A DNA stretch of 58,661 nt from an uncultured Verrucomicrobia subdivision 3 bacterium. GTDB lineage: Bacteria; Verrucomicrobiota; Verrucomicrobiia; Limisphaerales; UBA8199. Every line of letters begins with the position of its first letter. Position 1 is the stretch's first letter. Shown here piece after piece: positions 5,184 through 57,353 of this stretch. The translations under genes were made by a program, and so were the position numbers. Under the pieces are notes generated by a model. That model was not told the origin of the DNA. It did not search any database and saw nothing but the letters and a program-made list of their open reading frames with translations. The stretch lies in assembly GCA_903912925.1 (NCBI GenBank), contig CAIWJG010000374.1, positions 1 through 58,661 on the forward strand. Direction: 5' to 3'.

Positions 5184-5195
5184 CTCAGGCCCAGC

Positions 5196-12587: not shown

Positions 12588-12593
12588 TCTGCC

Positions 12594-15293: not shown

Positions 15294-15311
15294 GGGACTC
15301 GCCAGAATAAC

Positions 15312-17519: not shown

Positions 17520-17577
17520 ACAACTCCCCTAACTATTGCTCAACCGCAGGACAAGGTCGGGACTTTAGCATGGCGAT

Positions 17578-17607
17578 TCTATAGCTGGAAAGCCGGTGCG
17601 TTGACAA
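17578..17607 (-). promoter_or_regulatory. Candidate sigma70-like promoter upstream of P3 in the 114-nt P4-P3 gap
   Basis: The minus strand reads AGCTTGTCAACGC-...-TATAGA: -35 TTGTCA, 18-nt spacer, -10 TATAGA. The 13-mer GCGTTGACAAGCT (plus strand, 17598-17610) recurs at 30633-30645 in front of P9. Confidence 0.35.
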
Positions 17608-17633
17608 GCTTGATCGTGCTGCCACCGGCACGG

Positions 17634-19922: not shown

Positions 19923-19927
19923 TCTGA

Positions 19928-22609: not shown

Positions 22610-22655
22610 GCTTTAGATCTTGGTCGCGGCTTGGCTCATAGAACTCCCAACCAAC

Positions 22656-24581: not shown

Positions 24582-24586
24582 TCTGA

Positions 24587-26563: not shown

Positions 26564-26575
26564 TCTTCATTCTGA

Positions 26576-28681: not shown

Positions 28682-28702
28682 AGAGCAGCTCGGTAAATGA
28701 AC

Positions 28703-30650: not shown

Positions 30651-30678
30651 AAAAAACCGGGCCCCACTGGGGGCCCGG
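30651..30678 (-). terminator. Rho-independent terminator of the giant gene
   Basis: The minus strand reads CCGGGCCCC-CAGT-GGGGCCCGG followed by TTTTTT. This is a perfect 9-bp GC stem and 4-nt loop, starting ~66 nt after the stop codon. Confidence 0.8.
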
Positions 30679-30743
30679 CTGTAATTGCTTTCTATTCTAT
30701 CGCGCCGTTCTTCTCAAAGGTTCGAAGTCCGGGCGCAGTCCGG

Positions 30744-33700
30744 TTACGGAGCCGGGTTAACTGCGATCGACCGGTAGAAGACCGGCGCAGGATTGCTCAC
30801 CACGCAGGACCACGTGCCGCTCGGGCTGGACGCGGTATTCGTGCCACCCACCACCGGTATCCACGCCGACATGGGCGCCTTGATATTTCCGCTCGCCACC
30901 ACGTAATACAGCGCTCCCGGCGTGCCGAGCGCGTTGAGGCTGTAGGTGCCGATGCCGTTCTTGGTGAGGGACTTAATCACGTTGACGTAACTGTAGATAA
31001 CACTGCTCGTCACCACTTGATCCAGCGCGCTGGAAGAGTTGGCCGGGAAAGCACCATTGCCCAGATACTGAGCTATGATGGCGTTGTGCCCTATCGGCAG
31101 GGCGGTGGTGCTGGCAGTGGCGATCCCGCCGCTCAGCGCGTTGGTGGCAAACGGCGTGCCGTTGGCCAGGAAGACCACATTCCCCGTCGGGAGAGCCAAC
31201 GGCGGCACTCCGGTCACCGTGGCAGTAAACGTCACGCTGGCCAACTCCACCGAAGGATTGGTGCTGGAGACGAGGCCCACTGAGCTGCTCGATCCGGTAA
31301 TGACGCCGGTGTGGTCCGGAGCGTAGGTGTAGCTGTAATTGGCTCCACCATTGCCGTCATTAACCAGGCCCGCCGGGGTCAGCGTCTTGCTCACACCCGC
31401 GTTCGAGTTGTCATAGCTCTCGGTCCAGGCTGGCGCAGTGTCGCCGTGCTGAATGTTGCCCGCCGTGAGGGCCGGTATCGCCGCTGCCGTGGTCGTGCCG
31501 TCGTAGGCCTTGGTGTTGGTGGCTGCCGTCACCGTCAGGTTCGTCGCAACGACCGTCACCGTGCCGCTCACACCGGCCACCGTGTAGTTGGCCGCTGCTG
31601 ACCCGCCCAGTGACAGGCCAGGCACACCATAGAAGGTCGCCACCGCGCCCGCCCAGATCGCAGGCCCGCTGATCGTGCCGCCCGAATTCGCGGTTCCAGT
31701 TCCCGAGACGATCTTTTCGAGCGCATACACCCTCGAGTTAAAGGTCGACTGGAAGTAGCTGGACTGCGCATTGGTGACCGTGCTGAAGGAGTTCAAGACA
31801 CTCCCCAGCGTTTGGGCGCTGTTGGTAAGCCCGATCGCGCCGATCCACAGCTCGTTCCCCAGCGACGTGCTGGACGTAGTGCCGGTTACCGCGTTGGTGC
31901 CGATGCCCGTTGCATTGGCCGTCTGATCCACAGCGGCGCTCGTCAACATCCCGCTATACTCGACCACGATCGCACAGGAGCGGAGCGATGCGGCCTGACT
32001 GATGGTCACCGCGGTACCCGCACTGGCGCCGACTGGCGCATACCAGATTTCGGTGGTCACGCCGTTGGTATTATTCCCCGGGTTCGCCGCTTGTGACGCA
32101 CGTTTCCAAGTGGTCACATTGGCCTGGGTAATCGAGGTGACAGTGTTGTTAGTGGTGCCGCGCGTGGCGATCACCGCGACCAGGGTGTTCCCGCTCGTGG
32201 GAGCACGGCCCAAGGTCACCGCGAAGGTGGCCGCGCCGTTGCCGGAGACGCCGAAGGTAGCGACCTGCACCCGCGCCGGTGCCGCGTAGGTGGCGGACAG
32301 GACAGCTTCCGGTCCGGCATTCCTGCCGGCAATCACCGCGGTGCCCGACAGAGTCAGATTCGCACCATCAAGGTTGTTCGGAATCGAGAGGTTGCTCGAA
32401 TCGATCACCGGGAACCCATCGTAGTTCTTGCTGCCGGCCACCGTGATCGGCCGGGCGGTAATGACTAGATTGGAAACCGCCGACGAGCTACCCGCATAAA
32501 CCACTGCCGGATCGCTGAACAGCGCCTGGATGGCGTGAGGCGCCCCACCGTTGACCGCGAGGTTAACGGTCAGACTGGCCGTCCCGCCACTCACCGGTGC
32601 CGTGCCCACAACGATTCCGCTGTCCTTGAACGACACGTTCCCGCTCACCGTGCTAAGATCGCTGGCGACAACGTTCGCGCTCAGGACCGTAGCGCCGTAA
32701 ACCTGCGGTGTGGCAATCGTGCCCAGAGTCGTGGTCGTCGGAGTCGCGGTGGAGATGATATGGAGATTCACCTGACCGCCGCTGACTACGATGCTGCCGG
32801 CAAATCCGAGCCCAATGCTCGTGCCGATGACCGTGCAAGGGCCGGTGGCGACGACATCGCCGCTGGCCTGCTGGATCACCGGGTAATCGCCCACCTCTAA
32901 CGGGTTGGCGGTGTTGACCGTGAACTGGTTGCCGCCCAGCGACACCGTGCCCTGCGAGACGCTGATGGCAGGATGCGTCCCGTCGTAAGTTAGAACGATC
33001 GGCCGTGAACCCAGATCGACCGTGCCGCCAACCGGCCCGACGATCGTGGCGGCGCTGGCGTTTCCATCCGCGGTTATTGTCGCGGCGCCGCCCAGCGTGT
33101 AGGTGCCCGAGACAGCAGACACGTCAAGGGTCGCGCCGGCCGCCAGGGTGACACTGGAGGAGCTGGCTAGCGAATGGCCCAGTGCCAGCGTGCCCGCGTT
33201 GATGAGGGTGTTGCCGGCGTAGGTGTTGACGCCCGATAGCGTCTGCTTGCCGATGCCGTTCTTGATCACGGCCAGGTGGCCGTCCACCGTGCCGCTGTAG
33301 GCATAGGCACCCGAGCCGCCGAGCGTCAGGAGGCTCGCCGTGCCACTCGAATTGCGGACGCTACGGATGCCCGCGGTCGCCCCGAAGTCGGCCACGCCAA
33401 CCAGGGTCTGGCTGTTGCCGTTGAGATCCAGCACCGAGCTGTTGCCCGGAGCCGACAAATACACCACGGTGCTGGCAGGCAACCGGTTGTTGCCGCCGCT
33501 GAGTTTCACGTCCGCGATGGCGCCCGAGTTGGTGATGTAGGTGTTGCCGCCATAGGTGGCGATGTTCGTGACTGTGGTCGCCGTAAAGAAGTTCGCGCCA
33601 GGGATCGGACTGAAGTCTACGTCGCTGGGCGCCTTCCACAGCACCTGCAAGCCGTTGCCGCCAGTGCCCTCATTGTAACGAACGATAATATCGTGGTAAC

Positions 33701-36700
33701 CGACCGACATATCTTTGCTGCCACTGGCCAATACATTGACACTACCGTTATACGCCGTGGCCTGAGCCGTGATCGGATTATCCGAAGGCGGGTCAATCCA
33801 TATAGAGCTGCTGTCGTCGCTTATGGTCCCGAACGAGTAAGTGCCGGCGCTGGCAATGTAAACCTTGCCGCGGTATTCCACCGTGTAGGTATTCACGTAG
33901 TTCGTCGGGAACGGCCCCGGGGCAGCCACACCGCAGCCATTGGTCTCGCTGAAGGCCTCTTGGTCCACGAGCGCCATGTTGATAGACTGCGTCGCGTAGC
34001 CGATCGTCCCGGCGGCCGTGGAATCGGTCGGCGCGGGACTGGGACTGGTTACGCTGAATCTTGCGCCCTGTAACAAGGCATCAGATACGTTTGCCCAGGC
34101 CCGAATGGATAGGCCATTCGCGTAAGTGGTGCTGTAACTATAATTAGTCCCCAGCGTGTAGCTATTCGCAGCGGCCACCACAAACGTGACCTGATCGCTG
34201 CCATCGCCCGCGCCAAAGAACGTGACGTCGCCACTTCCGCTAATGGCTGAGTCAAAGTTCACCGTGGAGGACGCCGCGGCTTGCCCGCGAATCTGGGTAT
34301 TGCCCTGCAACGTCAGCGGACCGGTGAAGGTGATCTCGCCACCAGGCACGAAGGTGTGCAACGCACCGCCGTCAACACCCATGCCGCTAAGCTGCATTGG
34401 CGTGCTGACGGTCTGACCAGCAAAGCCTGAGGCAAAGCTCACCTCAGCTCCATTCTGCACGGTGATTGCGCTCGTGGAGCCCATGGCGCCCAAAGCACTG
34501 TATTCCAACGTGCCGGCGCCAACGGTCGTCGCACCAGCGTAGGTGTTCACGCCCGAGAGCGTCAGCTTGCCGCCGCCCCACTTGTTGAGGCTGCCCGACA
34601 CAATCGCGCCGGAGATGACCGCGTCCGCGTCGTTCGTGATGGCGCTCTGGCTCGCCAGTGACAGCGAGCTGCCCGTGATGGTGTGGCCCGCGCCCTGGAT
34701 GTCAAGCGCACCTGCCGTCATCGGCTGGACCAGCGTGACTGTCCCGGTCTTGTTCGACGGGAAGATGGCGGTGTCCGTGGCGCCCCGGTTATTGTCCCAA
34801 GCCGTCGAGCCATTATTCCAGTTGAGGTCGATGCTGTTCCACTGGCCGGTGCCGGCGCCGTTGTTCCACACCATGTAGCGCGGCACAGTCGTCCGCCCGG
34901 TCGCATCAATGACGACGTGGAAGGCGGCGAAGCCCGTGACTTGCAGCTCGCCGCTCACGAGGAAGTACTCGTAGACCGTGTAGTCCATATGCACCGAGGC
35001 TACCTCATTGCTGACCGCGATCGTGCCCGGCACGTCATTCGTGAGTGCTGCTCCGTAGCCGCTCAAGTCAATGCTGCCACTGGCCGTCCCGCCGTAGTAG
35101 GCCAGGGCGGACACAGCAAACACCACGTTGGACAACGTGAATGACCCGTCGGCGGGGTTGATCGGGGCTAGCGTCGCTTTGCCCGGGTTGCCATTGTAGA
35201 GCGTGGCGGGCTGTTCGAGCGTGCCGACCGTGGCGGTCACTGGAACTACCAGTGAACCCAGTGTCCACGTCAGACTCAGGACATAGGGTTGCATGGCGAC
35301 GTAGCGGAAGTCCTGCATCGCGATCTGCGTCGGGTGGCTGATCGAATCAAGCTGGAAGGACATAGAACCATTCAGGTTCTGCGTCTGGTTGGTACATTGC
35401 ATCCCGAGGTCAATAATAGTGCCCCCCAGGTCGCTGCTCGGATCGAGGCAGATGTTAATGTTCAGGGAGCTATTGGTCGCCAACTGCAGCGTGAACTCCG
35501 GCATGACGGTGAACATCATGCTGCTGGTTGCGCTGCCACATGGCGAGCCGGTGCTGGTCAGGGTCAGCGCCCAAGAGCCCGCCGATTTCTCCGATGCCGA
35601 CGGGGTGTAGGCCGCGTTCAACGTGGTGGCATCCGGGCTGAAAGTGCCCGCACCGCCGCTCCACGTGCCGCCCGTGGCCGTGCCGCCCACGCTGCCAGCC
35701 AACACGATATTGGTCGACAGCGAGGCGAGCAGGGTCTGGTTCGGCCCCGCGTTGGCGGTAGGCAGCGCCCGAATGGTCACGATCACTTGCGCCGTGCCCG
35801 GTGAGACCTCCGCAGGTTGGCCCGTGGTCGTTAGGGTGAGCGTAACCGTGCCGCTCGAATCATCCGCTGCCGACGGAGCATAGCTCGCGTTCAGCGTGGT
35901 ATTGTCTGGCGCGAAGGTGCCCGTGCCCAAAGACGTCCAGATGCCGCCCGTGGCGCCGTTGCCCACCGAGCCCCCTAGCCCCGCTGTGCTATGCGTAGCG
36001 CAGATGGTCTGGTCGCCGCCCGCACTCGCGGACGCCGCCGAACGGATCGTCACTACCACTTGTGCCGTAGCGCCCGCGCAAGGCAGGGCGGTCAACGTCA
36101 GTGTGACGGTGCCCGCCGTATTGTCGGCTGCCGTCGGAGTATAAGTCGCGTTCAGCGTCGTTGCATCCGGCACGAAGGTGCCCGTGCCCGAAGACGTCCA
36201 GAGGCCGCCCGTGGCGGTGGCGCCCACGCTGCCGCCCAACGGCGCCGTGCTGTGGCCCACGTAGATCGTCTGGTTGCCGCCCGTGCTGGCCGCCTCCAGC
36301 GGGTTCACCGTCAGCACCGCCGGCGGCACCGAGGTCTGCGAAGGAGTGCAGGCGCCACTAACGATCACCTGGTATTGGTTACCGCTGTTGGCCACCGTTG
36401 TGACTTCGTTGGTGTAGCAGGCATTCGTCGCCGTGTCGCTGATGTTGGTGAACGTCACCCCGCCATCCGCGCTCACCTGCCATTGATAGGTCAAGGCTGT
36501 GCCCGTGGCCGTCACGCAGAAGCTGGCTGGCGATCCGGCGCAAACCGTGGCATTGGCCGGGTGGCCTGCAATCGCTGGCAGCGCATGGATGGTCACCACC
36601 ACGTGCGCCGTGGCCGCGCTGCAAGGCGCTTGTTGACCCGTCGAGGTCAGCGTCAGCGTCACGGTGCCCGCCGAATTATCCGCCGCCGACGGAGTATATG

Positions 36701-51700: not shown

Positions 51701-54700
51701 CGCCTCGCGTCGCATATGTCTGGCTAGCCACCGCAGTATCTCCGCAATAGAGTTGCCCGGTATCGTAGGTCGGTAACACGGCACTGGTCGTAGTGCCGTC
51801 ATATATCTTGGTAGCTGTCGCCGCCGTCACCGTTATCGGCTTCCCGGTGACCGCCACGGTTCCGCCGACCGCGGTCGAGTTGGTGTAGTTCGAAGCTGCT
51901 GAACCGCTCAGGGCGAGCGTGTTTACCCATTGGTTCTGCCGGAAGGTGGCAATACACGAAGCCCAATCCACAGCCCAGCCGGCAGTAAAGTTGTTCATCG
52001 GAGCGTTGAATTGCGCCGAGCCTGCGGACGGCGCCGCATAATAGTATCCCAGGGTCCTGATTCGATCCGAATAGTTACAGGAGCTGCTGCCCGAGTCCGT
52101 CGTCCCGATCGAGACAAACAAGCTGGGAGTCGTAGGCGTCGGATAGGACAAGCCGCCAGTGGCGCAGGAGGATGTGGAGGTCGTGCCAGAACCGTAACCC
52201 TTCATACTTCCGCCGGCCACCCAAAGTTCCGGCGCCGCTGTCGTCGTGATCGCCGGGCCGGAGTCAAAGGCGCCATTTGGGCCCGAGTTGCCGGAGTTGC
52301 CTCCCGACACGTCCAGCGGGCTGCCATACAATACGCCACTGAATTCTGAAATCTGAGCGCCGGCCCGAACCGTGTAAGAACCGAAATTGATCGTCACGGC
52401 CGTGCCAGGAGTGCCCCGGCACGTAACGTTGCCATACCAGATTTCTTCGGAGATCAGGCCGTTGGGCTTATACCACCCTGCGGCGCGAGTCCAGGTCACT
52501 CCGGTCTGAGTAACGTTCAGCACGGCGTTAGACGTATCGGTAGCATTGCGGTAGCCGATCGTCGCGATCAGGGTGTTCCCGATCGCCGGAGCGGCACTCA
52601 GAGTTATCGGTATGGACGTGCCGGTATCGATGAGGCCGGTGCCGCGGTTGGCCACAAAACTCGGGGTTTGACTGCCGGGTGCCTGGACTATGGTGGATCC
52701 GGCATTCTGGTTGCCCGCCTTGGCGTCGCCCGATACAAACAACGCCGCGCCGTCCAGGTTGCCCACGACCGACATGTTCGTGCCGGACAGGACCGTGGTG
52801 TTATCGAACGCCTTGGTGCCGCTTAGGGTCACCGGCTTGGGACTGATGGTCAGCGGGGCCGGATCGGAAACACTTCCTGCATAACCTATGATACCCAGAC
52901 CCGGATTACCTTCGCGACCGCTGTACACGGCAACGATGGCATGCGGATTATCCGGCACCGTCAACTGGGTGGGGGTGGGTGTGTAATGCGCGACCCCAGT
53001 GGTCCCATCCAGGGTAACGACGCCCACGACAACGCCGTTGTCCTTGAAGGTTACCGTCCCGGTTGCATCGATAGGGGTCACTCTGGCGGTAAACTGTGCC
53101 ACGGAACCGTAGATCTGCGGCGTGGCAACCGGGTCCAACGTGGTAGTCGAGGGCAGTGACAGTTGCACCACGTTGAGCATCAGAGTATTGCCGTTGACTT
53201 CGATAAAGCCACCAAACCCGGTGGCAATGGCCGGACCACTCGCCGTGAATGTCCCGTTCGTCGCCAGGCTGCCGGTGGCGACCTGGATCAACGGGTAGAT
53301 GCCTACGCGCAGCGGCGCATCGGCGTCGATCGTAAAGGCGTTGCCGTTCAAGGACAAGCTGCTCTGCGAAACGGTTAGGGCTGGTCGCACCGTATCGATG
53401 TACAGGTAGATAGGCTGGACGGCATCGATCGTGCCGCCGGCGGGGCCTTTAAGGGTGGCGACACCCGTGTTGTCGGCAAGACCGCCCAGCGGAGGGCTGA
53501 AGAACGGGCTGGCCTGGGCAGAAACGTCAAAGGTCGATCCCGGTCCGACCCGGACCTGAGAAAGGAGCGAACCGCCGCTGAGCAAAGCTAGCGTGCCGCC
53601 ATTGACGAGGGTATTGCCGACGTAAGAGTTGGCATTGGCGAGACTGAACGTGCCCGTGCCGATCTTGGTGAGAGCCACTGTGCCGGCGGTGTTCTGCATA
53701 ATGCCGCTGAACGTGCTGCTGGCATTGCCATTCCCCACCGTTAGCGTCGCAGCGCCTGCGGCCAAGTTGTCCACGATCGCATTGGCGCCGCCGGTGAGGC
53801 GGGCGACCGTGTTGGCGGTGCCGTGGAGGTCGAGGCTCGCAGTGTTCGCGTTCGCGCTGGTACCGAAGATCAGATCGGTCCCGGGCAAAGCGCCCGAGCG
53901 GTTCAGTTGCAGCGTGGGATTGGCGCCCGCGCTATTGTTAAAGGCGTTTCCGGTCACGCCGATGGTGGTGACGCCCGCGTAAGAGCCTGCGCCATTCAGC
54001 ACCACGGTGCCACTATCCCAAACCACGCCCAGGCCGTCTGCGCCGCTAATGGCACCATTGATCGTGAAGGTGGTGCCCGCACCCGCAGCGAGGTACGCGC
54101 CGCCGCCCGGCAGGGAGACGCTGCGGTTGGCAGCCAGTGACAGCGACGAGCTGCTCAATAGTTGGCCGCCGCTGAGGGTGACGTTGACGGCTGGGGTGCC
54201 CGGCACAGCGCCCAACGCGGCGTTGTCGTTGATTTCGAGCACGCCGGCGTTGACGAAGGTCCCGCCGCTGTAGGTGTTCGCGCTGGAGAGTACCAGGGTG
54301 CCGACGCCCCATTTGCGCCAGCCGGCACTGCCCGCAATTGAGGCGGAGATTAGAGCGTTCGCGTCGTTTGTAATGGCGGGTAGATTGGCTAGAACGTTGT
54401 CCAGAACCTGAACCGAGCTGGGGGCCAGGGTCAGAACATTAGCGCCACTGCCCACAACCGTGTAGCCCGGAACCTGGAACCAGATCGAGCCGGCAGTAAT
54501 GGGAGTGTTCAGATTGACCGTGCCGCTCCCGGTTGCGCCGAAGGTGGCGGAGTCAGGCCGCATGTTATTCCATTTAGCCGTACCTAAATTCCAGTTCGTG
54601 TCGGTGGTATTCCAGTTGAAGGTGCCGCCATTCCACACCATATTGCGGGGCAGGATCGTCGGTCCGACCATGTCGGCGTGGCCCACAAAAGTGGGCACCG

Positions 54701-57353
54701 CTGAGACGGAAATGCTGCCGGTGACCACGATATTCGTAGTGATCGTGAAGTCAATATGCGCCGTCGCCATGTCGTTGGTGACATAGATACTGCCGGTCAT
54801 ATTGACCGGAGCATAGTCCAAGCTTAGGTCCAAGACGCCGCTGGCCGTGCCACCGTAATAGGCCACGCCGGAGCTGCTAAAGGGCAGACTTACGGTGAAC
54901 GTGCCACCATTGGCCCCGGGGGTCTGGCTAATCGTGGTTGTCGCCGCAGGGCTCGCCACAGTTTTGAGGATCGAAAACGGATGGCCAGGGCCGCCGATCG
55001 TGGCCGTTACGGGAATATTCACACTCGCAAAAGTGAACGTGTACGCAAAAAGATACGGGGCCAGAGCGGTCATTTGAAGGTTCTGCACCGTGATCTTCGT
55101 CGGGCTGTCGGGGTTGTCCAATTCGACCGCGAGATAGCCAGTTACCTTGTTGTTTCCGCTGGTGGTCTTCGAGCCAAGGTCCGTGCTGCCGCTGGCAGGG
55201 TGCATCATGAGGGAAATGGCGAGCGTGGAGGTGTTGGTATTGAAGGGCAGCGATACCAACTGCTGATAGGTGATGGTCAATGAACTCGACGGGGTGCCGC
55301 CGCCGCACGGCGAGGCGTCAGCGGTCAGGGTCATCACCCACGAGCCCGCCGCGCGCTCGACGGCACTCGGCGTATAGACCGCGTTCAACTGCCGGGCATT
55401 CGGGCTGTAGGTGCCCGAGCCGCCACTCCAGGTGGCGCCGGGGCTGTTGCCGATGCTGCCGGCCAGTTGCACGGCGCCGTAGGTGCCGGATACCATCTGG
55501 TTCGGCCCCGCGTTGACGGTCGCGTTGCCGGTGGCCAGGTAGGCCGTGACCGGGTTAGCCGCACCCTGGCAGCCAATCGCGCTGGTTTCAGTCACGTAGT
55601 AAGTCGTCGTGGCGCTGATGTTCGGGCTAAAGGTGGGGCCCGTGCCTACCTGCGAAGTCGCGCCCGCATTGGACCACCACTTCAACACGGCCCCGGGGCT
55701 GCCGGTGCCGATGGCGCTCAGGTTCACCACGCCGGGGCCGCAGGTGGCGCCCCCAGTCGTAAGCGGCGCGACGGGTGGGACACCGTAGCCGAGCACGACC
55801 TGCGAGGTCGCATCGCCGCAAGGCTGCGCGGTTAGTGTCAGCGTGACGCCGCCCGACACCACCTCCGCCAGCGTGGGCGTGTAGGTTGCGTTCAGGGTCG
55901 TGTTATTCGGGGAGAACGTGCCGGCCCCGCCGCTCCAGATTGCCCCGGTCGCCCCGCCGCTTTTCGTGCCGGCCAACTGCACTGGGAGTCCGGTGGGACG
56001 GAAGAACAGGCTGCCCGGGATGTTGGCCCAGCTTGTGCCGCCGGTCGGATCCCAATACACAGCCAAGCCGTTCCCGCCGCCGCCCTGATTAAAACGAATA
56101 ATGATGTCGTGGTAACCCGCCGTCAAGGCGATCTGGCCGGAACTCACGGGAGTATTGTAGCCTTGACAAAAGTTGTTCTTCACAATGGCCTGGGCGAAGG
56201 TCGGATTAGCCGTGCCCGGGTCAATCCAAACCGCGCTGCCGTCGTCGCTCTGGGTTGCGAAGTTATAATTGCCGTCGGTGGCGATGTAGAGTTTGCCGCG
56301 GTATTCCACCGCATAGTTGGTCGTGTAGCCCGTCGGGAACGGGCCAGGAGAGGCCACGCCGCAACCGTTGCCCGCCAGGAAGTGCTCCAAGGGACCGGCG
56401 CCACTCATGCTGAGGGACTGCGTCGCGTAGCCGATCGTCCCGGCGGCCGTGGAAGCGGTCGGCGCCGGATTAGGACTGGTGGCATCGAACTGCACGCCCT
56501 CCATGGTGCCGCCACACTGATCGCCCGCGGGCAACCCAGTTGCGGCATTCCACTGGTTCCACGCCCGAACGAGGAGCCCCGCCGGAGCCGTGGGGTTGCA
56601 GACCGGCGGAATCGTGCCCGCATTCACCGTCGCCGCCGCCCGAATGGTCACCACCACCTGCGCCGACGCCGGCGAGCACAGCACATTCTGGCCCACCGAG
56701 GTTAGCGTCAAGGTCACCGTCGCAGCGTCGCCCGCTGAAGGTGTGTAGGTCGCGTTCAGTGTGGTCGCGTCCGGTACAAAGCTGCCCGTGCCGGTGGTTG
56801 TCCAGGTGCCGCCCGTCGCGCCGCCGCCCACCTGGCCGCCCAAGCCGGTAGTGCTGGCGTTTCGACAGATCGTCTGGTTGGGACCCACCGCCACCGTGGG
56901 AGGCGCATAAACCGTCAGCGTCACCGGGGTGGTTTCCTGCATGTCCTCATCGTCGGCCAGAATGACCTTGACCAGCCAGCCGTTCTCGCTCGCCGTGGTA
57001 GGCGAGAACGCAGTGCTGAGATTGTTGCCGCCATCCGGGGTAGCGGTCCAATTGGCGCCAGCATCCGAACTATACTGCCACTGAATGAGCAGGGTGCCTG
57101 CCGACGCTGTGGCGTCCACCGTGAAGGTGGCCGTCGTCGGGGCGCAAACCGTCTGGGCGGTTGGCGGGCTATTAATGGTCACCATGGCCTGGGCCACCTG
57201 GCTCAGGGCAAACAACACTCCGAGCACGGCAAGCCAGCCGAGCGCGAAGCGTGGGCGTGACGCGGCGCATCTCGGTTTGATGTTGATGGCTGTTTTAGGG
57301 GATGACTGTTTCATGGCAATACTTGGGCGGGGGGTCACCTGTGAGGTTTTCAT
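30744..57353 (-). CDS. Giant secreted repetitive surface/adhesin-like protein (8869 aa)
   Basis: A single uninterrupted ORF with a Sec-like N-terminus ('FALGWLAVLGVLFALSQVAQA'). By my manual count it has ~38 modules of ~85 aa ('NAGPNQTIC...GGATGGTWS..G.GTF.PNATTLNATYTPSAAD..AGTVTLTLT..GQ..C...AQVVVTI') and at least 13 Ig-like modules ('...LTYQWQVS.DGG.TF.N....TNASYT......D.G..Y.V.VSG.C'). It also has MBG-like 'K.YDGTT' modules, Big_3-like modules ('G.V.F.D......'), two PATR regions ('G.GTL.LSG.NTY.G.T.V.AGTL') and two PA14 domains. An alternative start at codon 14 (MKQSS) is possible. Confidence 0.9.
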   Translation of the reverse strand: MKTSQVTPRPSIAMKQSSPKTAINIKPRCAASRPRFALGWLAVLGVLFALSQVAQAMVTINSPPTAQTVCAPTTATFTVDATASAGTLLIQWQYSSDAGANWTATPDGGNNLSTAFSPTTASENGWLVKVILADDEDMQETTPVTLTVYAPPTVAVGPNQTICRNASTTGLGGQVGGGATGGTWTTTGTGSFVPDATTLNATYTPSAGDAATVTLTLTSVGQNVLCSPASAQVVVTIRAAATVNAGTIPPVCNPTAPAGLLVRAWNQWNAATGLPAGDQCGGTMEGVQFDATSPNPAPTASTAAGTIGYATQSLSMSGAGPLEHFLAGNGCGVASPGPFPTGYTTNYAVEYRGKLYIATDGNYNFATQSDDGSAVWIDPGTANPTFAQAIVKNNFCQGYNTPVSSGQIALTAGYHDIIIRFNQGGGGNGLAVYWDPTGGTSWANIPGSLFFRPTGLPVQLAGTKSGGATGAIWSGGAGTFSPNNTTLNATYTPTLAEVVSGGVTLTLTAQPCGDATSQVVLGYGVPPVAPLTTGGATCGPGVVNLSAIGTGSPGAVLKWWSNAGATSQVGTGPTFSPNISATTTYYVTETSAIGCQGAANPVTAYLATGNATVNAGPNQMVSGTYGAVQLAGSIGNSPGATWSGGSGTYSPNARQLNAVYTPSAVERAAGSWVMTLTADASPCGGGTPSSSLTITYQQLVSLPFNTNTSTLAISLMMHPASGSTDLGSKTTSGNNKVTGYLAVELDNPDSPTKITVQNLQMTALAPYLFAYTFTFASVNIPVTATIGGPGHPFSILKTVASPAATTTISQTPGANGGTFTVSLPFSSSGVAYYGGTASGVLDLSLDYAPVNMTGSIYVTNDMATAHIDFTITTNIVVTGSISVSAVPTFVGHADMVGPTILPRNMVWNGGTFNWNTTDTNWNLGTAKWNNMRPDSATFGATGSGTVNLNTPITAGSIWFQVPGYTVVGSGANVLTLAPSSVQVLDNVLANLPAITNDANALISASIAGSAGWRKWGVGTLVLSSANTYSGGTFVNAGVLEINDNAALGAVPGTPAVNVTLSGGQLLSSSSLSLAANRSVSLPGGGAYLAAGAGTTFTINGAISGADGLGVVWDSGTVVLNGAGSYAGVTTIGVTGNAFNNSAGANPTLQLNRSGALPGTDLIFGTSANANTASLDLHGTANTVARLTGGANAIVDNLAAGAATLTVGNGNASSTFSGIMQNTAGTVALTKIGTGTFSLANANSYVGNTLVNGGTLALLSGGSLLSQVRVGPGSTFDVSAQASPFFSPPLGGLADNTGVATLKGPAGGTIDAVQPIYLYIDTVRPALTVSQSSLSLNGNAFTIDADAPLRVGIYPLIQVATGSLATNGTFTASGPAIATGFGGFIEVNGNTLMLNVVQLSLPSTTTLDPVATPQIYGSVAQFTARVTPIDATGTVTFKDNGVVVGVVTLDGTTGVAHYTPTPTQLTVPDNPHAIVAVYSGREGNPGLGIIGYAGSVSDPAPLTISPKPVTLSGTKAFDNTTVLSGTNMSVVGNLDGAALFVSGDAKAGNQNAGSTIVQAPGSQTPSFVANRGTGLIDTGTSIPITLSAAPAIGNTLIATIGYRNATDTSNAVLNVTQTGVTWTRAAGWYKPNGLISEEIWYGNVTCRGTPGTAVTINFGSYTVRAGAQISEFSGVLYGSPLDVSGGNSGNSGPNGAFDSGPAITTTAAPELWVAGGSMKGYGSGTTSTSSCATGGLSYPTPTTPSLFVSIGTTDSGSSSCNYSDRIRTLGYYYAAPSAGSAQFNAPMNNFTAGWAVDWASCIATFRQNQWVNTLALSGSAASNYTNSTAVGGTVAVTGKPITVTAATATKIYDGTTTSAVLPTYDTGQLYCGDTAVASQTYATRGVGSGINLIPNLVFTDGNAGANYTAVRVNGTGTITPKALTVSGSIASNKTYDATTADVLSGTPAFQAGEAAGTGTTADGKPYTVDSVAALGPPVGVFATPYVGAAKPVTVSGVTATGSGASNYSVTQQTGLTATITARPVQLVGTKTYNGITAVIAGNLTAPNNLDGGNLTLSGSATLGNRNIGGTIAIVSTNGLTLGGALSTNYTLVGASGTVAVAKTNLTVTASANTKLYDGAIIALAVATVQPGGIQPSDIAPSWTETYDNRNAGTGKTLTPAALLVSDGNSGANYAYSYVPQNIGTITQIPLTITAQPNTKMYDGTTTAVTRGILAVTNIISPDIVSVWPETYDNINVGTSKTLTPSGVVADGNAGLNYSYNYVQNHAGAITNLVITPSEQPVSFTGCLGSPAVFTTTVPGVGLSYQWQVSYDYALTYTNLVNATNASYTNPAVTLADSGNFYQVIVSGPGTATITSAPPAELTVSIGLSSSANPVNQTVCSGAPTAVLHGIIGNGAYVALWSGAGTFSPTNNVLDVTYTPSASEISAGSATVSLTGSQPGSVCVPAVSTATIVILPGPVVHAGPNQTVCADAPRTQLAGAIGGTANSFYWSGAGTFVKNVYETNAIYVPTAGEIAAGSATVTLTANAPSGPCAPVTSTMTISISPAATAAVGPNQTICSSDVTAALGGTVGGAATGGLWTASPGGGTFLPDATSLNATYTPSAADKTAQAVTLTLHATGQLLPCLETAHVLVTIHPLATVTTGGNQTICADQVTAGLGGTVGGGATGGTWSTAGTGTFVPNNTALNATYHPLASDKTARAETLTLTTTGQLSPCTPATIQLVVTIHALPAITSQPVNLTVCAGHPAAFAVSTTGTALTYQWQESLDFGGSWSSVTDATNASYTIPAAGLITDDGKLIQVIVSGACVPAVTSTPPAELTVNEAPTVQAGPDQTVCASSPATLLAGSFGGLATTATWSGAGAFVPNATTLHAVYTPTATEIAAGSATVTLTTDNPGGTCPAAFASMTITINPVATANAGPNQTLCSISPAAQLGGSFGGVATSATWSGAGTFVPSIYVMNPVYTPSAAEITAGSATVTLTTDDPNGPCPRAISTMTVTINHPSAITSQPVSLTNCAGSPATFTVAASGTGWLYLWQLSQDNGTNWTPISDSATNASYTIPAPTISQSGNQFQVIVSSAGCPGSHTSDAATLTVYELPAVTSSPTNLTLCAGSPAIFYSTSTGVGLSYQWQVSTDGGTTYANILPDASNGYSSTNPTYGEYVTTVAENGNEYRVIVSGTCTPSATSAPPAVLTIHTPATASAGANQTICSIGTADLSGTVNGGATGGKWSGGTGSFQPNPTALNATYHPSPADISAGSVTLTLTTTGQLTPCPAVTSQMVVSIQPVAVVSAGANQTICSTASTLGLGGAVSGGTTTGQWTTAGTGTFSPDATTLNATYAPSTDDATAGTVTLTLTSTGNQSTCAAQTAQVVVTVHKVAVVSAGGNQTICSSGTTVGLGGTVSGGTTTGQWTTSGTGTFAPNATTLNATYAPTAADATAGTVTLTLTSTGDLSTCTAQTAQVVVTVHKAAVASTGGNQTICANQSTAGLGGAVSGGATGGTWTSSGTGTLTPDATTLNATYSPSDADKSAGTVTLTLTTTGQLSPCSATSTNLVVTIHAVPAITSQPNNLTVCAGSPAIFAATATGASLTYQWEVSQDSGLTFTNVSATATNASYTNAVTALADNGNRYKVVVGGACTPSQTSEIAALTVYAPATASAIGPQTICSGNDTAALGGTVGGGATGGTWTSSGTGDFIPDATSLNATYTPSMDDLIGTGTVTLTLTATGQQAPCGAATATVVVTIHPEATASAGGNQTICSGLPTAALGGIVDGSATNGIWTTSGSGAFTPNSITPNAIYTPSAADITAGTVTLTLITTDAPAPCPQVAVQVVVTINPAAQVNAGPNQTVCSSSPTVTLAGSFGGGATSATWSGAGSFAPNNSAMNATYTPSAGEITAGNATVTLTTDNPPGPCGLASASMTITISPAATVAAGPNQTVCSSSPSVTLAGSFGGGAPSATWSGAGSFAPNRTTMNATYTPTAGEIAAQSATVTLTTDEPQTLRPSGPCGSVNASMTITIHPAATASAGGNQTICAGSATASLNGTVGGGATGGTWSGGSGTFSPNATTLNATYQPSANDITVGSVTLTLSSTGQQTPCGALTAQVIVAINATPAIESQPANVTVNSGVPATFCVGATGASLSYQWEVSGNNGVTFTNISAIATNACYTNPATTLADDAKQYRVVVTGSCSPGQTSTVAVLTVGLPYTVYAGPDQTICAGESTQLAGQYGNGAMGAIWTSGGSFAPNSTTMNAIYTPSASEISAGSATLTLTTHPPGSVSSTMTITINPTAQVNAGPNQTVCSISPATQLAGSFGGGATLAYWSGAGLFLPNIYATNAIYTPTATEIAAGSATLSLFSNDPPGPCGAATNSMTITIHPAATASAGGNQTICAGSATAGLGGTVSGATGGTWSGGSGTFNPNATTLNATYQASANDITSGTVTLTLTSTGQQSPCLAATAQVVVTIRAAATVNAGGNQTICASGSTVTLNGSYGGAATGATWSGAGSFAPNSTTMNAAYSPTETELAAGSATVTLTSSGQLAPCGAATASMTMTINAPPHITGQPQSQTNCAGSPATLTATATGTGLQYQWQVSTNGGATFANVSSTATNTSYTIAATTVAESGYQYHVIIDNAACSAITSAPPAVLTVHGLPTITSQPASLTKCAGSAATFSVTATGTDLTYQWQVSANGGVTFTNISDTETNTSYTIAATTLAESGLKYQVIVSGACSPAQTSTPPAVLTVNALATASAGANQTICSSGLTAGLGGTVGGGATGGTWSSPGAGTFTPNATTLNATYTPSAADKTAGTVTLTLTTTGQQTPCGAATAQVVVTIRPAATVGASGNQTICSTGVTAGLGGTVGGGATGGTWSSPTSGTFTPNATTLSATYTPTAADISAGTVTLTLTTAGQQTPCGAVTAQVVVTIRLAATVGAGGNQQIYAGVSTTGLGGTYGGGATGGTWSSPGLGTFNPNATTLNATYTPSAADKTAGTVTLTLTATGQQAPCVATTNLVVTILTPTNTTVALVPASVSSPKAYGTTVLSATVLPSGATGSVTFMDSTTTLAVVPLSGGTASLATNLTVNGGAAHPIQALFNDPTGRYTNSVSAVSNVVITAKALTLAGTKTYDGGTNVTPAQGLALSGVVGGDSVSLAPATGLVLLAGRNSGSQAVSYTPTTPTRVRFATGATPAAAATTIAVTMSAAPANGNTMIAVISTRGTSSGRVTSIAQTGATWSRASQSVGTGGSTTEIWYAPNVLNAAALVTITQASLRSAAIVMEYSGVLTAGALDQVANSNANSTAAVTGTTPATTQANEVWVGGIGLVNSTYTLTSTNGGFTSPTNAVSAGASASANAKVYALELVVAASGAATSGGTVSASSQWSGAIATFRAKYSVLTLAGAAASNYTLTTSGTVAVAQSNLTVTAAANTKVYNGTTSAAAIPTITAGTIQTGDTATSWTETYSDKHAGTGKTLTPAGVVTDGNSGNNYSYTYTPIITGVINATNLTVTAVVNTRIYNGNATAAANPTITAGAIQTGDSAPTWTEAYSDKNVGTGKTLTPAALKVTDGNSGNNYSYTYTPVVTGAINATNLTVTAAVNTKIYDGTASAAANPTITAGAIQAGDSAPIWTEAYSDKNAGTGKTLTPAPLKVTDGNSGNNYSYTYAPIITGVINATNLTVTAVANTKIFDGTTSAAANPTITAGTIQTGDTAPTWTETYDNSNPGTGKTMTPVALKVTDGNTGLNYSYTYTPVSTGEISLLQISQQPTNVEVCSGTPAIFTVVLTNAVGLTYQWQASMDNGVTFTNILANGTYASYTNLTTPPVDNGKQYQVIVAEGTGSVTSAPPAVLTTGAPVTASSGGNQTICAGSPTAGLGGTVGGGATGGTWTSSGAGVFTPNATTLNATYTPSVAEVAAGTATLTLTTSGQNPACSAAVTQMTVTIHAAPAITGQPASVTVCAGTPAVYSVIATGVGATYQWQVSVDYGITFTNLIVNATHASYTNPAPSFAEDNNLYQVVVTVASCPPLTSSPVWLTILTAPTADAGVNHTVCATSAATALIGSTGGSATSATWSGAGTFSPTNNVLNVTYTPTAAEILAGTATVSLTAVSDLGDCRPAVSTTAIKIDPAPTVNAGPNQSVCASSPITQLAGSFGGAATNAVWSGAGRFTPNPFGMSPTYTPTASEISAGSATVTLTSNDPVGPCEAVTSTMTITIHPVATASAGANQTICAGSSTAGLGGTVGGAATGGTWSSATGGTFTPNATTLNATYTPSAADISANAVTLTLSSTGQLTPCAEAVAHVTVTIHPAATASTGGNQTICADQITTGLGGTVGGGATGGTWSSTTGGTFTPNATALNATYTPSAADKTAGAATLTLSTTGQLTPCTPATAQLVVAVHALPAITGQPANQTVCAGSPVVLSVETTGTALTYQWQVSLDYGVTFTNVSDTATNANYTNLTPTLADSGKFYQVIVSGACSPAVTSAPPAELTVDQPPTAQIVIVGNQTVVCASSPSVPLLGSFGGGATTAAWSGAGTFAPNATSLNAVYTPSADEIAAHTTTVTLTAHDPTAICTPAIATSTITINPAAQVNAGPNQTVCATSPNTQLAGSFGGAATSAKWSGAGRFVQNAFIMNAVYIPTASEIAAGTATVTLTTDDPIGPCGAVSASMTITIHQAATASAGGNQTICSDTPTAGLGGTVSGGATTGTWTSSGTGSFVPNATTLNASYTPTAADTSAGTVTLTLTTTGQEPCSAATAHVIVSIHPVATANAGANQTVCSSSPTVTLAGSIGGGATGAAWSGAGAFAPDHTSLSATYTPTAAEISAGSATVTLTTSGQVAPCGPVSSAMTITIHAAAVASAGANQTICAGQSTAALGGTVSGGATGGDWSSTGTGTFAPDATALGATYTPSAADNSAGTVTLTLTSTGQQAPCSAATAHVVVTIHALPAIAGHPANATVCAGSPASFCVTATGTALTYQWQVSADGGVTFTNISDTATNACYTNEVTTVANSGNQYQVIVSGACTPSQTSVPPAVLTVNPLEAASTGGNQTIYVGHSTAPLGGSVGATATGGLWTSSGTGTFVPDATTLNATYTPTAADNTAGTVTLTLTALPCAGATAQVVVTIRSAASASAGGDQTICATHSTAGLGGSVGNGATGGIWTSLGTGTFAPDNTTLNASYAPSAADDSSGTVTLTLTTTGQPAEVSPGTAQVIVTIRALPTANAGPNQTLLASLSTNIVLAGSVGGTATGGTWSGGAGTFSPDATTLNAAYTPSASEKSAGSWALTLTSTGSPCGSATSSMMFTVMPEFTLQLATNSSLNINICLDPSSDLGGTIIDLGMQCTNQTQNLNGSMSFQLDSISHPTQIAMQDFRYVAMQPYVLSLTWTLGSLVVPVTATVGTLEQPATLYNGNPGKATLAPINPADGSFTLSNVVFAVSALAYYGGTASGSIDLSGYGAALTNDVPGTIAVSNEVASVHMDYTVYEYFLVSGELQVTGFAAFHVVIDATGRTTVPRYMVWNNGAGTGQWNSIDLNWNNGSTAWDNNRGATDTAIFPSNKTGTVTLVQPMTAGALDIQGAGHTITGSSLSLASQSAITNDADAVISGAIVSGSLNKWGGGKLTLSGVNTYAGATTVGAGTLEYSALGAMGSTSAITVQNGAEVSFASGFAGQTVSTPMQLSGMGVDGGALHTFVPGGEITFTGPLTLQGNTQIRGQAAASSTVNFDSAISGSGDVTFFGAGDGSDQVTFVVAAANSYTLGTNYSYSTTYANGLSIRAWANVSDALLQGARFSVTSPSPAPTDSTAAGTIGYATQSINMALVDQEAFSETNGCGVAAPGPFPTNYVNTYTVEYRGKVYIASAGTYSFGTISDDSSSIWIDPPSDNPITAQATAYNGSVNVLASGSKDMSVGYHDIIVRYNEGTGGNGLQVLWKAPSDVDFSPIPGANFFTATTVTNIATYGGNTYITNSGAIADVKLSGGNNRLPASTVVYLSAPGNSSVLDLNGNSQTLVGVADFGATAGIRSVRNSSGTASLLTLGGSGAYAYSGTVDGHLAVIKNGIGKQTLSGVNTYAGNTLINAGTLALGHSLASSSSVTLAAGATLDVSAVSGTYTLGGAATITADGNASAATIVGPVGGTVDLGSRPIVLTYDGTHPAISVSQGTVSLGGNQFTVNTANPLEVGDYPVIQQASGDVVATGPCTVIGTSIGLGFAGSIVVSGGQVNLHIISTATPTTTTLGTIATPQVYGATVLSANVVASDLSTVSGNVSFKDSGIVVGTAPVSGGTASLTVNLAVNGGAPHAIQALFSDPAVVYAGSSSAVSNLVITARPITVAGSKNYDGFPVIDSSNLSIPNNLDGANLTLSGTAVIAGRNAGPEAVLSATYAAPARVQVATFGVSGNGAATFAVTLGRAPTSGNTLVAVIATRGTTNNTVTSITQANVTTWKRASQAANPGNNTNGVTTEIWYAPVGASAGTAVTISQAASLRSCAIVVEYSGMLTSAAVDQTANATGIGTNAVTGTTSSTSLGNELWIGAIGLTNSAQTLGSVLNSFSTVTNAQSSYFQSTFNSRVYALEKIVSGTGTANSGGTISGPAIWAGAVATFYGVPGLSLGGSAAANYTVAGVSGTVTVVATNLTVTAATNTKAYDGTTTAAAIPALTAGNIQHGDTAPAWTESYDNSNAGVSKTLTPAGLVNDGNGGANYSYTYAPDHTGVITGSSSSVGLVSSTNPSVELASVTFTATVTGVPPLALPTGNVVFLANGTPFATNALSGGIATASTTALPIGHNAIIAQYLGNGAFPANSSSALDQVVTSSVIYSYVNVIKSLTKNGIGTYSLNALGTPGALYYVVASGNIKAPMSAWIPVVGGTNTASSPSGTWSCVVSNPAPVFYRSIAVNPAP
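30747..31010 (-). other. Unassigned ~88-aa C-terminal domain of the giant protein
   Basis: 'SSVIYSYVNVIKSLTKNGIGTYSLNALGTPGALYYVVASGNIKAPMSAWIPVVGGTNTASSPSGTWSCVVSNPAPVFYRSIAVNPAP'. No PEP-CTERM, LPXTG, beta-barrel or RTX-type signal was recognised. Confidence 0.5.
31620..32240 (-). other. Unassigned 'X' domain, copy 3 of 3 (giant protein)
   Basis: 'TFAVTLGRAPTSGNTLVAVIATRGTTNNTVTSITQANVTTWKRASQ...TEIWYAPVG...AIVVEYSGMLTSAAVDQTANATG...NELWIGAIGLTN...RVYALEKIVSGTGTANSGGTISGPAIWAGAVATF'. It is collinear with the copies at 41225-41840 and 51935-52620. Confidence 0.6.
32760..34870 (-). other. PATR (autotransporter-associated beta-strand repeat) region 2, interrupted by PA14 #2
   Basis: Contains 'GGGKLTLSGVNTYAGATTVGAGTLEY' and 'GIGKQTLSGVNTYAGNTLINAGTLALG', and ends '...VVSGGQVNLHII'. 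Confidence 0.65.
33585..34080 (-). other. PA14 domain #2
   Basis: 'YTVEYRGKVYIASAGTYSFGTISDDSSSIWIDPPSDNP...SVGYHDIIVRYNEGTGGNGLQVLWKAP'. This is the PA14/GLEYA-type pattern and a paralog of 56005-56510. Confidence 0.7.
34880..35500 (-). other. Unassigned 'U' domain, copy 2 of 2
   Basis: 'EFTLQLATNSSLNINICLDP...VVPVTATVGTLEQP...ALAYYGGTASGSIDLSGYGA...VASVHMDYTVYEYFLVSGELQV...PRYMVWNNG'. It is collinear with 54640-55260. Confidence 0.6.
35500..40130 (-). repeat. Module array 2: alternating ~85-aa Cys-pair modules and Ig-like modules
   Basis: Repeated 'NAGPNQT[IV]C...[LM]NA[TV]Y.P[ST]...TLT...C' modules interleave with 'YQWQ[VA]S' Ig-like modules. Several neighbouring copies are very similar at the DNA level. 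Confidence 0.8.
40135..41160 (-). repeat. ~4.5 tandem copies of a 252-255-bp repeat (MBG-like modules)
   Basis: GTAGGTGTAGCTGTA recurs at 40158, 40413, 40668 and 40923 (spacing 255 nt). The protein reads 'NLTVTA.ANTK[VI]Y[ND]GT.SAAA.PTITAG.IQ.GD.A..WTE.YSDK..GTGKTLTPA...VTDGNSGNNYSYTYTP..TG.INAT'. Confidence 0.9.
41225..41840 (-). other. Unassigned 'X' domain, copy 2 of 3
   Basis: 'TIAVTMSAAPANGNTMIAVISTRGTSSGRVTSIAQTGATWSRASQSVGTGGSTTEIWYAPNV...AIVMEYSGVLTAGALDQVANSNANS...NEVWVGGIGLVN...KVYALELVVAASGAATSGGTVSASSQWSGAIATF'. Confidence 0.6.
42345..50545 (-). repeat. Module array 1: ~22 Cys-pair ~85-aa modules interleaved with ~8 Ig-like modules
   Basis: Same module types as array 2. For example, 46960-47480 holds two nearly identical adjacent modules ('SAGANQTICSTASTLGLGGAVSGGTTTGQWTTAGTGTFSPDATTLNATYAPS...'). 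Confidence 0.8.
51935..52620 (-). other. Unassigned 'X' domain, copy 1 of 3
   Basis: 'IPITLSAAPAIGNTLIATIGYRNATDTSNAVLNVTQTGVTWTRAAGWYKPNGLISEEIWYGNVT...AQISEFSGVLYGSPLDVSGGNSGNSG...PELWVAGGSMKG...WAVDWASCIATF'. Confidence 0.55.
53170..54560 (-). other. PATR (autotransporter-associated beta-strand repeat) region 1
   Basis: Contains 'WGVGTLVLSSANTYSGGTFVNAGVLEINDNAALG' and 'GTGTFSLANANSYVGNTLVNGGTLALL', and ends '...IEVNGNTLMLNVV'. Confidence 0.65.
54640..55260 (-). other. Unassigned 'U' domain, copy 1 of 2
   Basis: 'LVSLPFNTNTSTLAISLMMHP...NIPVTATIGGPGHP...GVAYYGGTASGVLDLSLDYA...MATAHIDFTITTNIVVTGSISV...PRNMVWNGG'. Confidence 0.6.
56005..56510 (-). other. PA14 domain #1
   Basis: 'YAVEYRGKLYIATDGNYNFATQSDDGSAVWIDPGTANP...TAGYHDIIIRFNQGGGGNGLAVYWDP'. 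It is preceded by 'SPNPAPTASTAAGTIGYATQS', matching 'SPSPAPTDSTAAGTIGYATQS' in copy #2. Confidence 0.7.

Follow-up and report, generated by a model that had tools for sequence, protein, structure and literature searches.

The 58,661-nucleotide stretch of contig CAIWJG010000374.1 (GenBank assembly GCA_903912925.1), analysed as a whole and called the window in what follows, comes from an uncultured bacterium of the Verrucomicrobiota and carries a giant gene whose 8869-residue product is probably a Sec-exported, very long and modular adhesive fibre located at the cell surface or outside the cell. The protein reads as a secreted fibre-like adhesin because it combines PA14 domains, long arrays of immunoglobulin-like (Ig-like) modules, a presumed β-helix of PATR repeats and a domain named X here with Cys pairs in 39 of its 51 modules and a Sec-type N-terminus.

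The architecture (Table 1) was mapped by fragment-versus-fragment BLASTP, by hidden Markov models (HMMs) built on the modules of the window itself and by Pfam and NCBIfam scans; fragments were compared instead of the whole giant protein, whose self-BLAST gave only the identity match. The HMMs count 38 modules of class A, 13 of class B, three X domains and two U domains. The protein opens as the preliminary description had proposed, with a signal peptide, an Ig-like module, a Cys-pair module and the first PA14 region, the modules being placed by HMM and Pfam and the signal by eye as a Sec-type peptide without a lipobox Cys, with Met14 as an alternative start. The fragment comparison also agrees with a Big_3-YDG-X-YDG order that occurs three times and a U-PATR order that occurs twice, attributed earlier to segmental duplication. 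Thus, residues 1395-1907 match both 5001-5473 and 8200-8674 at about 34% identity (the three Big_3-YDG-X-YDG blocks), 5022-5399 match 8216-8599 at 50%, 1201-1599 match 8006-8395 at 39% (PATR tail, Big_3 and X), 614-968 match 7201-7561 at 41% (a class A module and U), and 230-454 match 7719-7926 at 47% over 225 amino acids (the PA14 regions). The two module arrays, put earlier at about 2700 and 1500 amino acids, measure 2729 and 1540 on the HMM map. The modules previously called MBG-like lie where they had been placed, their Pfam name being YDG (PF18657), and the 4.5 tandem copies described among them are borne out by the four tandem YDG domains mapped in block 2, which are 75-77% identical and have a DNA period of 255 nucleotides repeated 4.0 times.

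Regarding the individual families, the first PA14 domain exceeds the gathering score of PF07691 (28.1-31.6 bits, cut-off 24) and is overlapped by a GLEYA match just below threshold, whereas the second reaches 17.8 bits in Pfam, below the cut-off, yet is homologous to the first. PATR matches are found at approximately 1014-1041 (three stretches within residues 900-1400), 7589-7617 and 8030-8058, with 60 and 52 bits for PF12951 and 50 bits for TIGR02601, and the first PATR region begins with a W-x6-W lead-in (W907, W914, W921 and W928). Big_3_5 is above its cut-off at 1410-1482 and 8695-8782, the copy at 8214-8297 being sub-threshold, while YDG passes its gathering score in four chunks (108, 71, 38 and 36 bits), the copies directly preceding each X domain remaining sub-threshold.

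Table 1. Features of the giant protein, its gene and the neighbouring genes, with positions in the window.
Feature	Residues	Window position	Strand	Content and basis
Giant open reading frame		30744..57353	minus	8869 amino acids and stop; ATG start; no internal stop
Signal-like N-terminus	1-57	57183..57353	minus	basic N-region, hydrophobic core LGWLAVLGVLFAL, then AQA/M; manual reading
Class B (classical Ig) module	59-148	56910..57179	minus	window HMM
Class A Cys-pair module	153-237	56643..56897	minus	window HMM
PA14 #1 region	238-443	56025..56642	minus	Pfam PA14 at 345-439
Class A (partial), Ig_7, class A	444-521, 527-604, 611-694	55272..56024 (residues 444-694)	minus	Pfam and window HMM
U domain #1	700-911	54621..55256	minus	window HMM, profile searches
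PATR region #1	912-1395	53169..54620	minus	presumed β-helix
Super-repeat block 1	1410-2269	50547..53126	minus	Big_3_5 1410-1482; weak YDG-like ~1495-1573; X #1 1574-1814; about five YDG 1840-2269; Pfam, BLAST, HMM
Array 1	2276-5004	42342..50528	minus	2729 amino acids; 30 modules of ~90 amino acids (22 class A, 8 class B)
Super-repeat block 2	5005-5741	40131..42341	minus	Big_3-like 5005-5100; YDG-like 5102-5161; X #2 5166-5384; four tandem YDG 5405-5741; BLAST, Tandem Repeats Finder, HMM, Pfam
Array 2	5744-7283	35505..40124	minus	1540 amino acids; 17 modules (13 class A, 4 class B)
U domain #2	7292-7504	34842..35480	minus	window HMM
PATR region #2	7505-8200	32754..34841	minus	PA14 #2 embedded at 7719-7926
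Super-repeat block 3	8214-8782	31008..32714	minus	Big_3_5-like 8214-8297; YDG-like 8302-8352; X #3 8360-8581; YDG 8605-8686; Big_3_5 8695-8782; Pfam and HMM
C-terminal domain	8783-8869	30747..31007	minus	ends ..PVFYRSIAVNPAP; no family match
Terminator-like hairpin		30655..30680	minus	11-bp stem with 9 G-C pairs, followed by TTTTGTT; separates the giant gene from the first TPR gene
Nine TPR genes		10326..30550	minus	each a ~500-residue domain with multiple transmembrane segments plus a TPR array
Heptanucleotide tracts (examples)		11898-11933, 11963-11996, 14674-14736, 19087-19136, 19324-19361, 19894-19926, 23709-23739, 23770-23807, 25832-25869, 25893-25930, 26535-26574, 28008-28070, 28629-28660, 29691-29744, 29991-30022

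The class B modules (13 copies, alignment A2) are classical I-set-like Ig domains, a type recognised by profile similarity to solved Ig domains together with a strand B Cys, a core Trp and the strand F motif Y-x-V/C. Their profile matches the phage immunoglobulin-like domain protein 9ncf_S (E = 2.5e-20) and the phage tail protein 9c2d_S (1.2e-10) in the PDB, followed by cardiac MyBP-C (4e-5) and titin (0.08), the Pfam Ig_3 and I-set matches remaining below cut-off. The term eukaryote-like, which had been applied to these modules, is therefore only partly apt: the classical Ig assignment stands, but the same Ig type occurs in phages and bacteria, and the closest solved relatives are phage proteins. 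The class A modules (38 copies, alignment A1) share the consensus ..AGxNQTICxxxxTxxLxGxxGGGATGGTWSxGAGTFxPNATTLNATYTPSAxEIxAGxxTLTLTxxGxxxPC.. and give nothing significant against Pfam as single modules; likewise, their profile finds no convincing relative in the PDB, the best being a weak match to the KIAA0319L PKD domain (E = 0.57). With a class B plus a class A module as query, the GTDB species genomes yield 184 relatives; their class A part is 45-69% identical in many Bacteroidota and also occurs in Eisenbacteria and Verrucomicrobiota. Among them are an Ohtaekwangia open reading frame (ORF) of more than 2300 amino acids with SprB-type repeats at its start and a Gilvirhabdus ORF of more than 3200 amino acids whose end resembles a sorting domain of the type IX secretion system (T9SS), both features being read by eye. 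The Cys pairs lie approximately 63-65 residues apart at fixed positions in 30 of the 38 class A and 9 of the 13 class B modules, which would fit disulfide stapling in an oxidising compartment. Ser and Thr together make up 26-28% of the Thr/Ser-rich modules.

The X domain has 64 relatives, none of which carries a Pfam domain on the X stretch. Stand-alone proteins of about 230 residues are frequent among them, and relatives occur in Bacteroidota and even Bathyarchaeota genomes. One Asp of X is invariant, and Glu and Trp residues are nearly so. The AlphaFold2 model, built from a 43-sequence alignment, is all-β and confident (predicted local distance difference test, pLDDT, 95.6; predicted template modelling score, pTM, 0.92). 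Compared by Foldseek, it has no match in the PDB (best E = 0.028, template modelling (TM) score below 0.3), while BFVD, a collection of predicted structures, yields 71 matches at E ≤ 0.001 with TM scores up to 0.81, including minor tail proteins of the mycobacteriophages PP, Gaia, Tonenili, Tweety and Hawkeye; against PHROG, no match is found at the sequence level. Phage or prophage structural modules contain the genes of two stand-alone X proteins (loci L092, 6001-6711, and L093, 6001-6693), directly after portal and capsid genes and a gene of 468-613 amino acids, which in one case has a weak tail-fibre-like YadA_head match and in the other no family match. Because of the matches to predicted phage minor tail proteins and the stand-alone copies in phage structural modules, X is probably a binding module of the phage-tail type, for a receptor or a glycan. 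At locus L092, a GT4 glycosyltransferase gene and radical-SAM/SPASM genes come after the stand-alone X gene.

The U domain is rare. A word-indexed protein search retrieved no homolog and likewise not the giant protein itself, which is therefore apparently absent from that protein collection. In an exhaustive profile search across 1.84 billion representatives, 27 proteins emerged, four of which are close. The close relatives, which are metagenome fragments, repeat the local order PA14-Ig_7-U or U-PATR, and in the remote ones U lies just past the N-terminus of Big_7 or PATR proteins. Concerning the C-terminal domain of 87 amino acids, its motifs weakly resemble those at the C-terminal end of a different surface protein from Verrucomicrobiota (pairwise E = 1e-4). 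This conserved domain is the best candidate for an outer-membrane anchoring or sorting element.

The reading frame itself, reported earlier as an ORF of 8869 amino acids, stands as described, being intact, uniform in its third-position GC and collinear with an ortholog in a second assembly. Its GC content at third codon positions is 0.74-0.83 across all 1000-codon blocks, a range like that of the window's housekeeping genes (0.73-0.81), and upstream of the ATG the frame stays open for only 16 codons. An assembly artefact or pseudogene, in which repeat mis-joins or hidden frameshifts gave a falsely long ORF, could be suspected from the metagenome-assembled origin of the contig, from the highly repetitive gene (periods of 255-273 nucleotides with 77-86% identity) and from the sole long ortholog found, which is split over many frames. 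Nevertheless, a chance open frame of 26.6 kb is not credible, the domain matches stay in one frame from end to end, the third-position GC is uniform, no exact repeat reaches 50 nucleotides, and the ortholog keeps the domain order over about 7800 amino acids, its frame breaks resembling long-read indel errors; this explanation is highly improbable and already largely refuted. As the matches of Tandem Repeats Finder at these periods are just 77-86% and the longest exact DNA repeat within the gene is 40-49 nucleotides, the repeats are old and diverged, and the assembly is unlikely to have collapsed or expanded them; an error of one unit in the number of modules is nevertheless conceivable.

No whole-gene ortholog was found among GTDB species representatives searched with the C-terminal 469 amino acids, which returned only scattered relatives of X and YDG. 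The ortholog, reached through an X match, lies on the ENA contig ERZ25039538:contig_45660 (153.9 kb) and is collinear by tblastn with residues 1050-8869 at 44-78% identity, in the order PATR, Big_3, X, YDG, array, Big_3-X-YDG, array, U-PATR-PA14, Big_3-X-YDG and C-terminal domain, the last of these being 64% identical. Its arrays are shorter (about 20 against 30 modules and about 13 against 17), the last Big_3_5 is missing, and the coding sequence is broken into many frames, presumably by long-read indel errors, judging from the contig name and the pattern of the breaks. After it comes an array of the TPR membrane proteins that also adjoin the giant gene in the window; as the ortholog is collinear and this array adjoins it, a second organism has conserved both the giant gene and its surroundings.

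In composition, the giant protein is rich in Thr (16.2%), Ala (14.2%), Gly (11.9%) and Ser (9.6%), contains 113 Cys and 108 Trp, and is acidic, with 339 Asp and Glu against 177 Lys and Arg. N-x-S/T sequons are enriched (182 observed compared to 127 ± 10 in shuffled sequences), but this is not independent evidence for glycosylation, because they lie in repeated consensus motifs. A consensus sigma-70 scan 5' of the gene found no promoter; a TTGACA-N16-TACAAC motif near the gene start was read by eye. A divergent ORF of 287 amino acids (57497-58360, plus strand) lies on the same side and has no Pfam or NCBIfam match.

Eight of the nine neighbouring TPR genes are paralogs with 62-67% identity to one another. 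The ninth, the fifth gene in order (19928-22609, minus strand), has a different and unassigned membrane domain of about 500 amino acids and approximately 11 TPRs, and by hhalign it matches the paralogs only in the repeat-encoded peptide FTFHVSRFTFH. TPR families match the neighbour proteins with scores up to 1e-101, while the membrane domain of the paralogs has no match among Pfam, NCBIfam and PDB sequences, including Pfam PMT and DUF1736. As seen in its AlphaFold2 model (pLDDT 79, pTM 0.84), the Foldseek ranks 1-18 in the PDB are all GT-C proteins (TM score 0.33-0.49; probability 1.00 for ranks 1-17 and 0.99-1.00 over 1-18), comprising Pmt4, ArnT, AftA, PglB/STT3/AglB, DPY19 and Pmt1/2. Directly after the first transmembrane segment, D55 and D56 are invariant in 60 sequences of the family, and a DD motif defines the TMTC and PMT enzymes (PMC7801869); the literature mentions prokaryotic TMTC-like proteins of full length, as yet uncharacterised (PMC7801869). 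On the predicted GT-C fold, the DD motif and the TPR array, the eight neighbours are TMTC-like GT-C/TPR putative protein O-glycosyltransferases. This TPR-GT-C family is large, with more than 8000 close relatives, many of them labelled protein O-mannosyl-transferase by JGI.

Taken together, the giant protein would be exported by Sec, and its Ig-like arrays would act as stiff, disulfide-stapled rods which, at about 4 nm per module, would together span roughly 0.2 micrometres. These spacers would hold ligand-binding heads off the cell, namely PA14, of a carbohydrate-binding type, X and YDG, where the two PATR/PA14 units and three X/YDG units may form multivalent binding heads, the multivalency having possibly arisen by segmental duplication of the threefold and twofold super-repeats. 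In the periplasm, the adjacent TMTC-like enzymes may also add O-glycans to the Thr/Ser-rich modules, in the way that eukaryotic TMTCs O-mannosylate cadherin domains (PMC7001481, PMC11292533). Several points weigh against this model. The signal peptide was called by eye, and the Pfam and NCBIfam scans of the giant protein found no element of outer-membrane export or anchoring, whether an autotransporter barrel, an RTX or type I secretion system (T1SS) signal or a T9SS C-terminal domain, nor was a PEP-CTERM or LPXTG motif seen by eye. The hhalign probability between classes A and B is just 48%, a borderline value. As for the glycosyltransferases, their connection to the giant protein has gene proximity as its sole basis, the terminator-like hairpin parts the giant gene from the TPR genes, and elsewhere a ten-gene TMTC-like array has no giant gene within 10 kb and a single TMTC-like gene stands among housekeeping genes. 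The giant protein had been called the obvious candidate substrate of the neighbouring enzymes. It is a candidate, given GT-C neighbours and a recurrent synteny, but the terminator and a large family that is often unlinked make it less than obvious; a functional link is plausible because of the shared strand, the adjacency, the conserved synteny, a Ser/Thr-rich β-sandwich substrate and a third locus, in which TMTC-like genes adjoin a protein of more than 2105 amino acids with PA14 and Ig matches. The reaction would be transfer of mannose or another sugar from a polyprenyl-phosphate donor to Ser/Thr of the giant protein, a candidate activity whose support is gene proximity and the protein O-mannosyl-transferase annotation.

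Two other roles can be considered for such a protein. As a structural cell envelope or S-layer-like coat, its arrays would form a lattice or sheath with no projected heads, in agreement with a very large, repetitive, acidic protein rich in Thr, Ala, Gly and Ser, with its conserved C-terminal domain and with its possible glycosylation, as many S-layer proteins are glycoproteins. However, neither SLH nor another S-layer or cell-wall anchoring family appears in the Pfam and NCBIfam scans, PA14, the phage-tail-type X, YDG and Ig spacers form a set typical of adhesins, and the arrays of the two orthologs differ in their number of modules (about 20 and 13 on the ENA contig, 30 and 17 in the window), as suits a spacer better than a lattice unit. 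A coat is for these reasons unlikely, and of the preliminary alternatives of a fibre-like adhesin or an S-layer-associated protein, the former is backed by the domain content, the Cys pairs and the Sec-type N-terminus, the latter being without specific support. Quite unlikely is a protein for the capture and degradation of prey or substrate, as in Omnitrophota, where X or U would be enzymes acting on polysaccharide or cell wall. Giants combining attachment and carbohydrate-active domains have been proposed to serve predation (bioRxiv 10.1101/2023.11.21.568195), X has its invariant Asp and nearly invariant Glu and Trp, and a GH2 gene is located at 6604-9630; yet no catalytic family is matched anywhere in the 8869 amino acids, X is related in structure to phage tail proteins, whose function is binding or not established, and the transmembrane regions and SecA-like domains reported for the Omnitrophota giants are missing. 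The best explanation, and a probable one, is an adhesive fibre.

The most intriguing side observation concerns the TMTC-like genes, which contain tandem heptanucleotide repeats, (GTGAAAC)n, (TCTGCAT)n, (TTCGGAT)n and (GCGTGGA)n, in 3-9 copies, plus a 9-mer. The tracts lie at equivalent loop-coding positions and over start codons, they encode peptides such as RMQNAECRMQN and SRFTFHVSRFTFH, and the unit ATGCAGA gives an ATG in all three frames; the fifth gene also carries (GTGAAAC)n, at 21758-21790. TMTC-like orthologs of at least 95% identity in other assemblies differ only at the repeats, by indels of seven amino acids and by locally frame-shifted re-readings, and on one contig a TMTC-like gene is split at a heptanucleotide repeat. 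Similar repeats are found in the TMTC-like genes of other Verrucomicrobiota loci (L010, which is the ERZ25039538 contig_45660, L011 and L012), including loci lacking the giant gene, with units such as AGAATGC, CCGAAGC, CACGCAC, CTCAACT and GGTGTCA, so that the period of seven is kept across loci and the unit sequence is not. These repeats may serve phase variation or produce hypervariable glycosyltransferase loops. A bolder and rather doubtful combination is that the giant fibre would be the dedicated substrate of the eight TMTC-like enzymes, the repeats switching individual paralogs on and off or re-reading loops and thereby generating combinatorial glycoforms in a clonal population, while X would be a structurally unsolved receptor-binding fold that cellular adhesins share with phage tails. 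If true, this pairing of enzymes and substrate would be a bacterial counterpart of cadherin O-mannosylation.

Other short repeats lie between genes of the window. Two adjacent tracts of eight nucleotides at 3062-3171, (GGTTACAC)n and the complement-like (TGTAACCA)n, form an inverted pair of repeat arrays in the gap that separates 2276-3016 from the ORFs whose starts lie near 3106 and 3163, and a tandem repeat of 11/22 nucleotides, (TAGTACCTTAA)n in five copies, lies at 10086-10149 between the GH2 gene and the last TPR gene. A pseudopilin-like ORF (4257-5183, plus strand), which carries DUF1559 and a methylation motif at its N-terminus and is characteristic of bacteria of the Planctomycetes-Verrucomicrobia-Chlamydiae (PVC) superphylum, overlaps the minus-strand ORFs 3106-4380 and 4494-5090, which have no family matches.

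Compared with known systems, the giant protein resembles the passengers of type V autotransporters in its PATR repeats (PF12951/TIGR02601) and in the W-rich lead-in typical of β-helical passengers; however, its PATR regions are internal and occur twice, and the Pfam and NCBIfam scans of the C-terminal 769 and last 87 amino acids found no barrel, only YDG and Big_3_5. A classical autotransporter is thus ruled out by the missing C-terminal β-barrel, despite its PATR passenger. An RTX adhesin secreted by a T1SS, of the LapA, SiiE or MpIBP type, is likewise rejected, since HemolysinCabind gives no match, the N-terminus is of the Sec type and the scanned ORFs of the window include no T1SS genes. 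With the SprB-like T9SS giant adhesins of Bacteroidota, the protein shares the class A 'AGxNQTxC...W...C' module, at 45-69% identity, and the plan of long repetitive surface filaments, but it comes from another phylum, has no match to the SprB repeat or to a T9SS domain and adds PATR, PA14 and X. A SprB-like T9SS adhesin was set aside in view of residues 8783-8869, which match no family, class A being the only module in common. The class B profile (9ncf_S, 9c2d_S) and the fold of X relate it to phage Ig-like decoration, tail and minor tail proteins, although here the modules sit within a cellular protein of 8869 amino acids and X has no PHROG match. The neighbours, in turn, are similar to the eukaryotic TMTC1-4 in their GT-C fold, in the DD motif of the first extracytoplasmic loop and in the C-terminal TPR array, with a putative giant substrate of repeated small β-sandwich modules in the place of cadherins, while being bacterial, arranged as eight tandem paralogs, furnished with heptanucleotide repeats and without a match to Pfam PMT or DUF1736. 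Should they indeed modify the giant protein, O-glycosylation of specific protein domains by GT-C enzymes that bear TPRs could be studied here in a tractable bacterial model.

The protein also resembles the huge repetitive surface and attachment proteins of the PVC superphylum and other bacteria, the Omnitrophota giants included. More than 41,000 proteins above 5000 amino acids have been catalogued across all life, mostly eukaryotic, and among the bacterial ones surface attachment is a leading class and the PVC superphylum belongs to the enriched phyla (PMC11573180). Since bacterial proteins of up to 85,804 amino acids are reported (bioRxiv 10.1101/2023.11.21.568195), the preliminary statement that this ORF is among the largest in bacteria was overstated. 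The protein shares with these giants its multi-kilobase ORF, signal peptide, Ig-like arrays with lectin-type domains, PVC lineage and inferred attachment function; it differs in being far below 85,804 amino acids, in lacking their many transmembrane regions and SecA-like domains, and in its unusually regular plan (three Big_3-YDG-X-YDG and two U-PATR-PA14 units) with class A, U and X, for which Pfam has no family. Most likely, it is a large and unusually well-ordered example of an already known kind of protein. What deserves attention is the regular super-repeat plan, the three families without Pfam models and a fold of X common to phage tails yet absent from the PDB. As a clean and fully open surface giant of the PVC group, the gene can be a good annotation template for fragmentary relatives in metagenomes, with class A, which is widespread in Bacteroidota adhesins, the rare U and X now delimited as families. 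X, having a confident model, no PDB relative and kinship with phage tails, is a good target for structure determination and glycan arrays.

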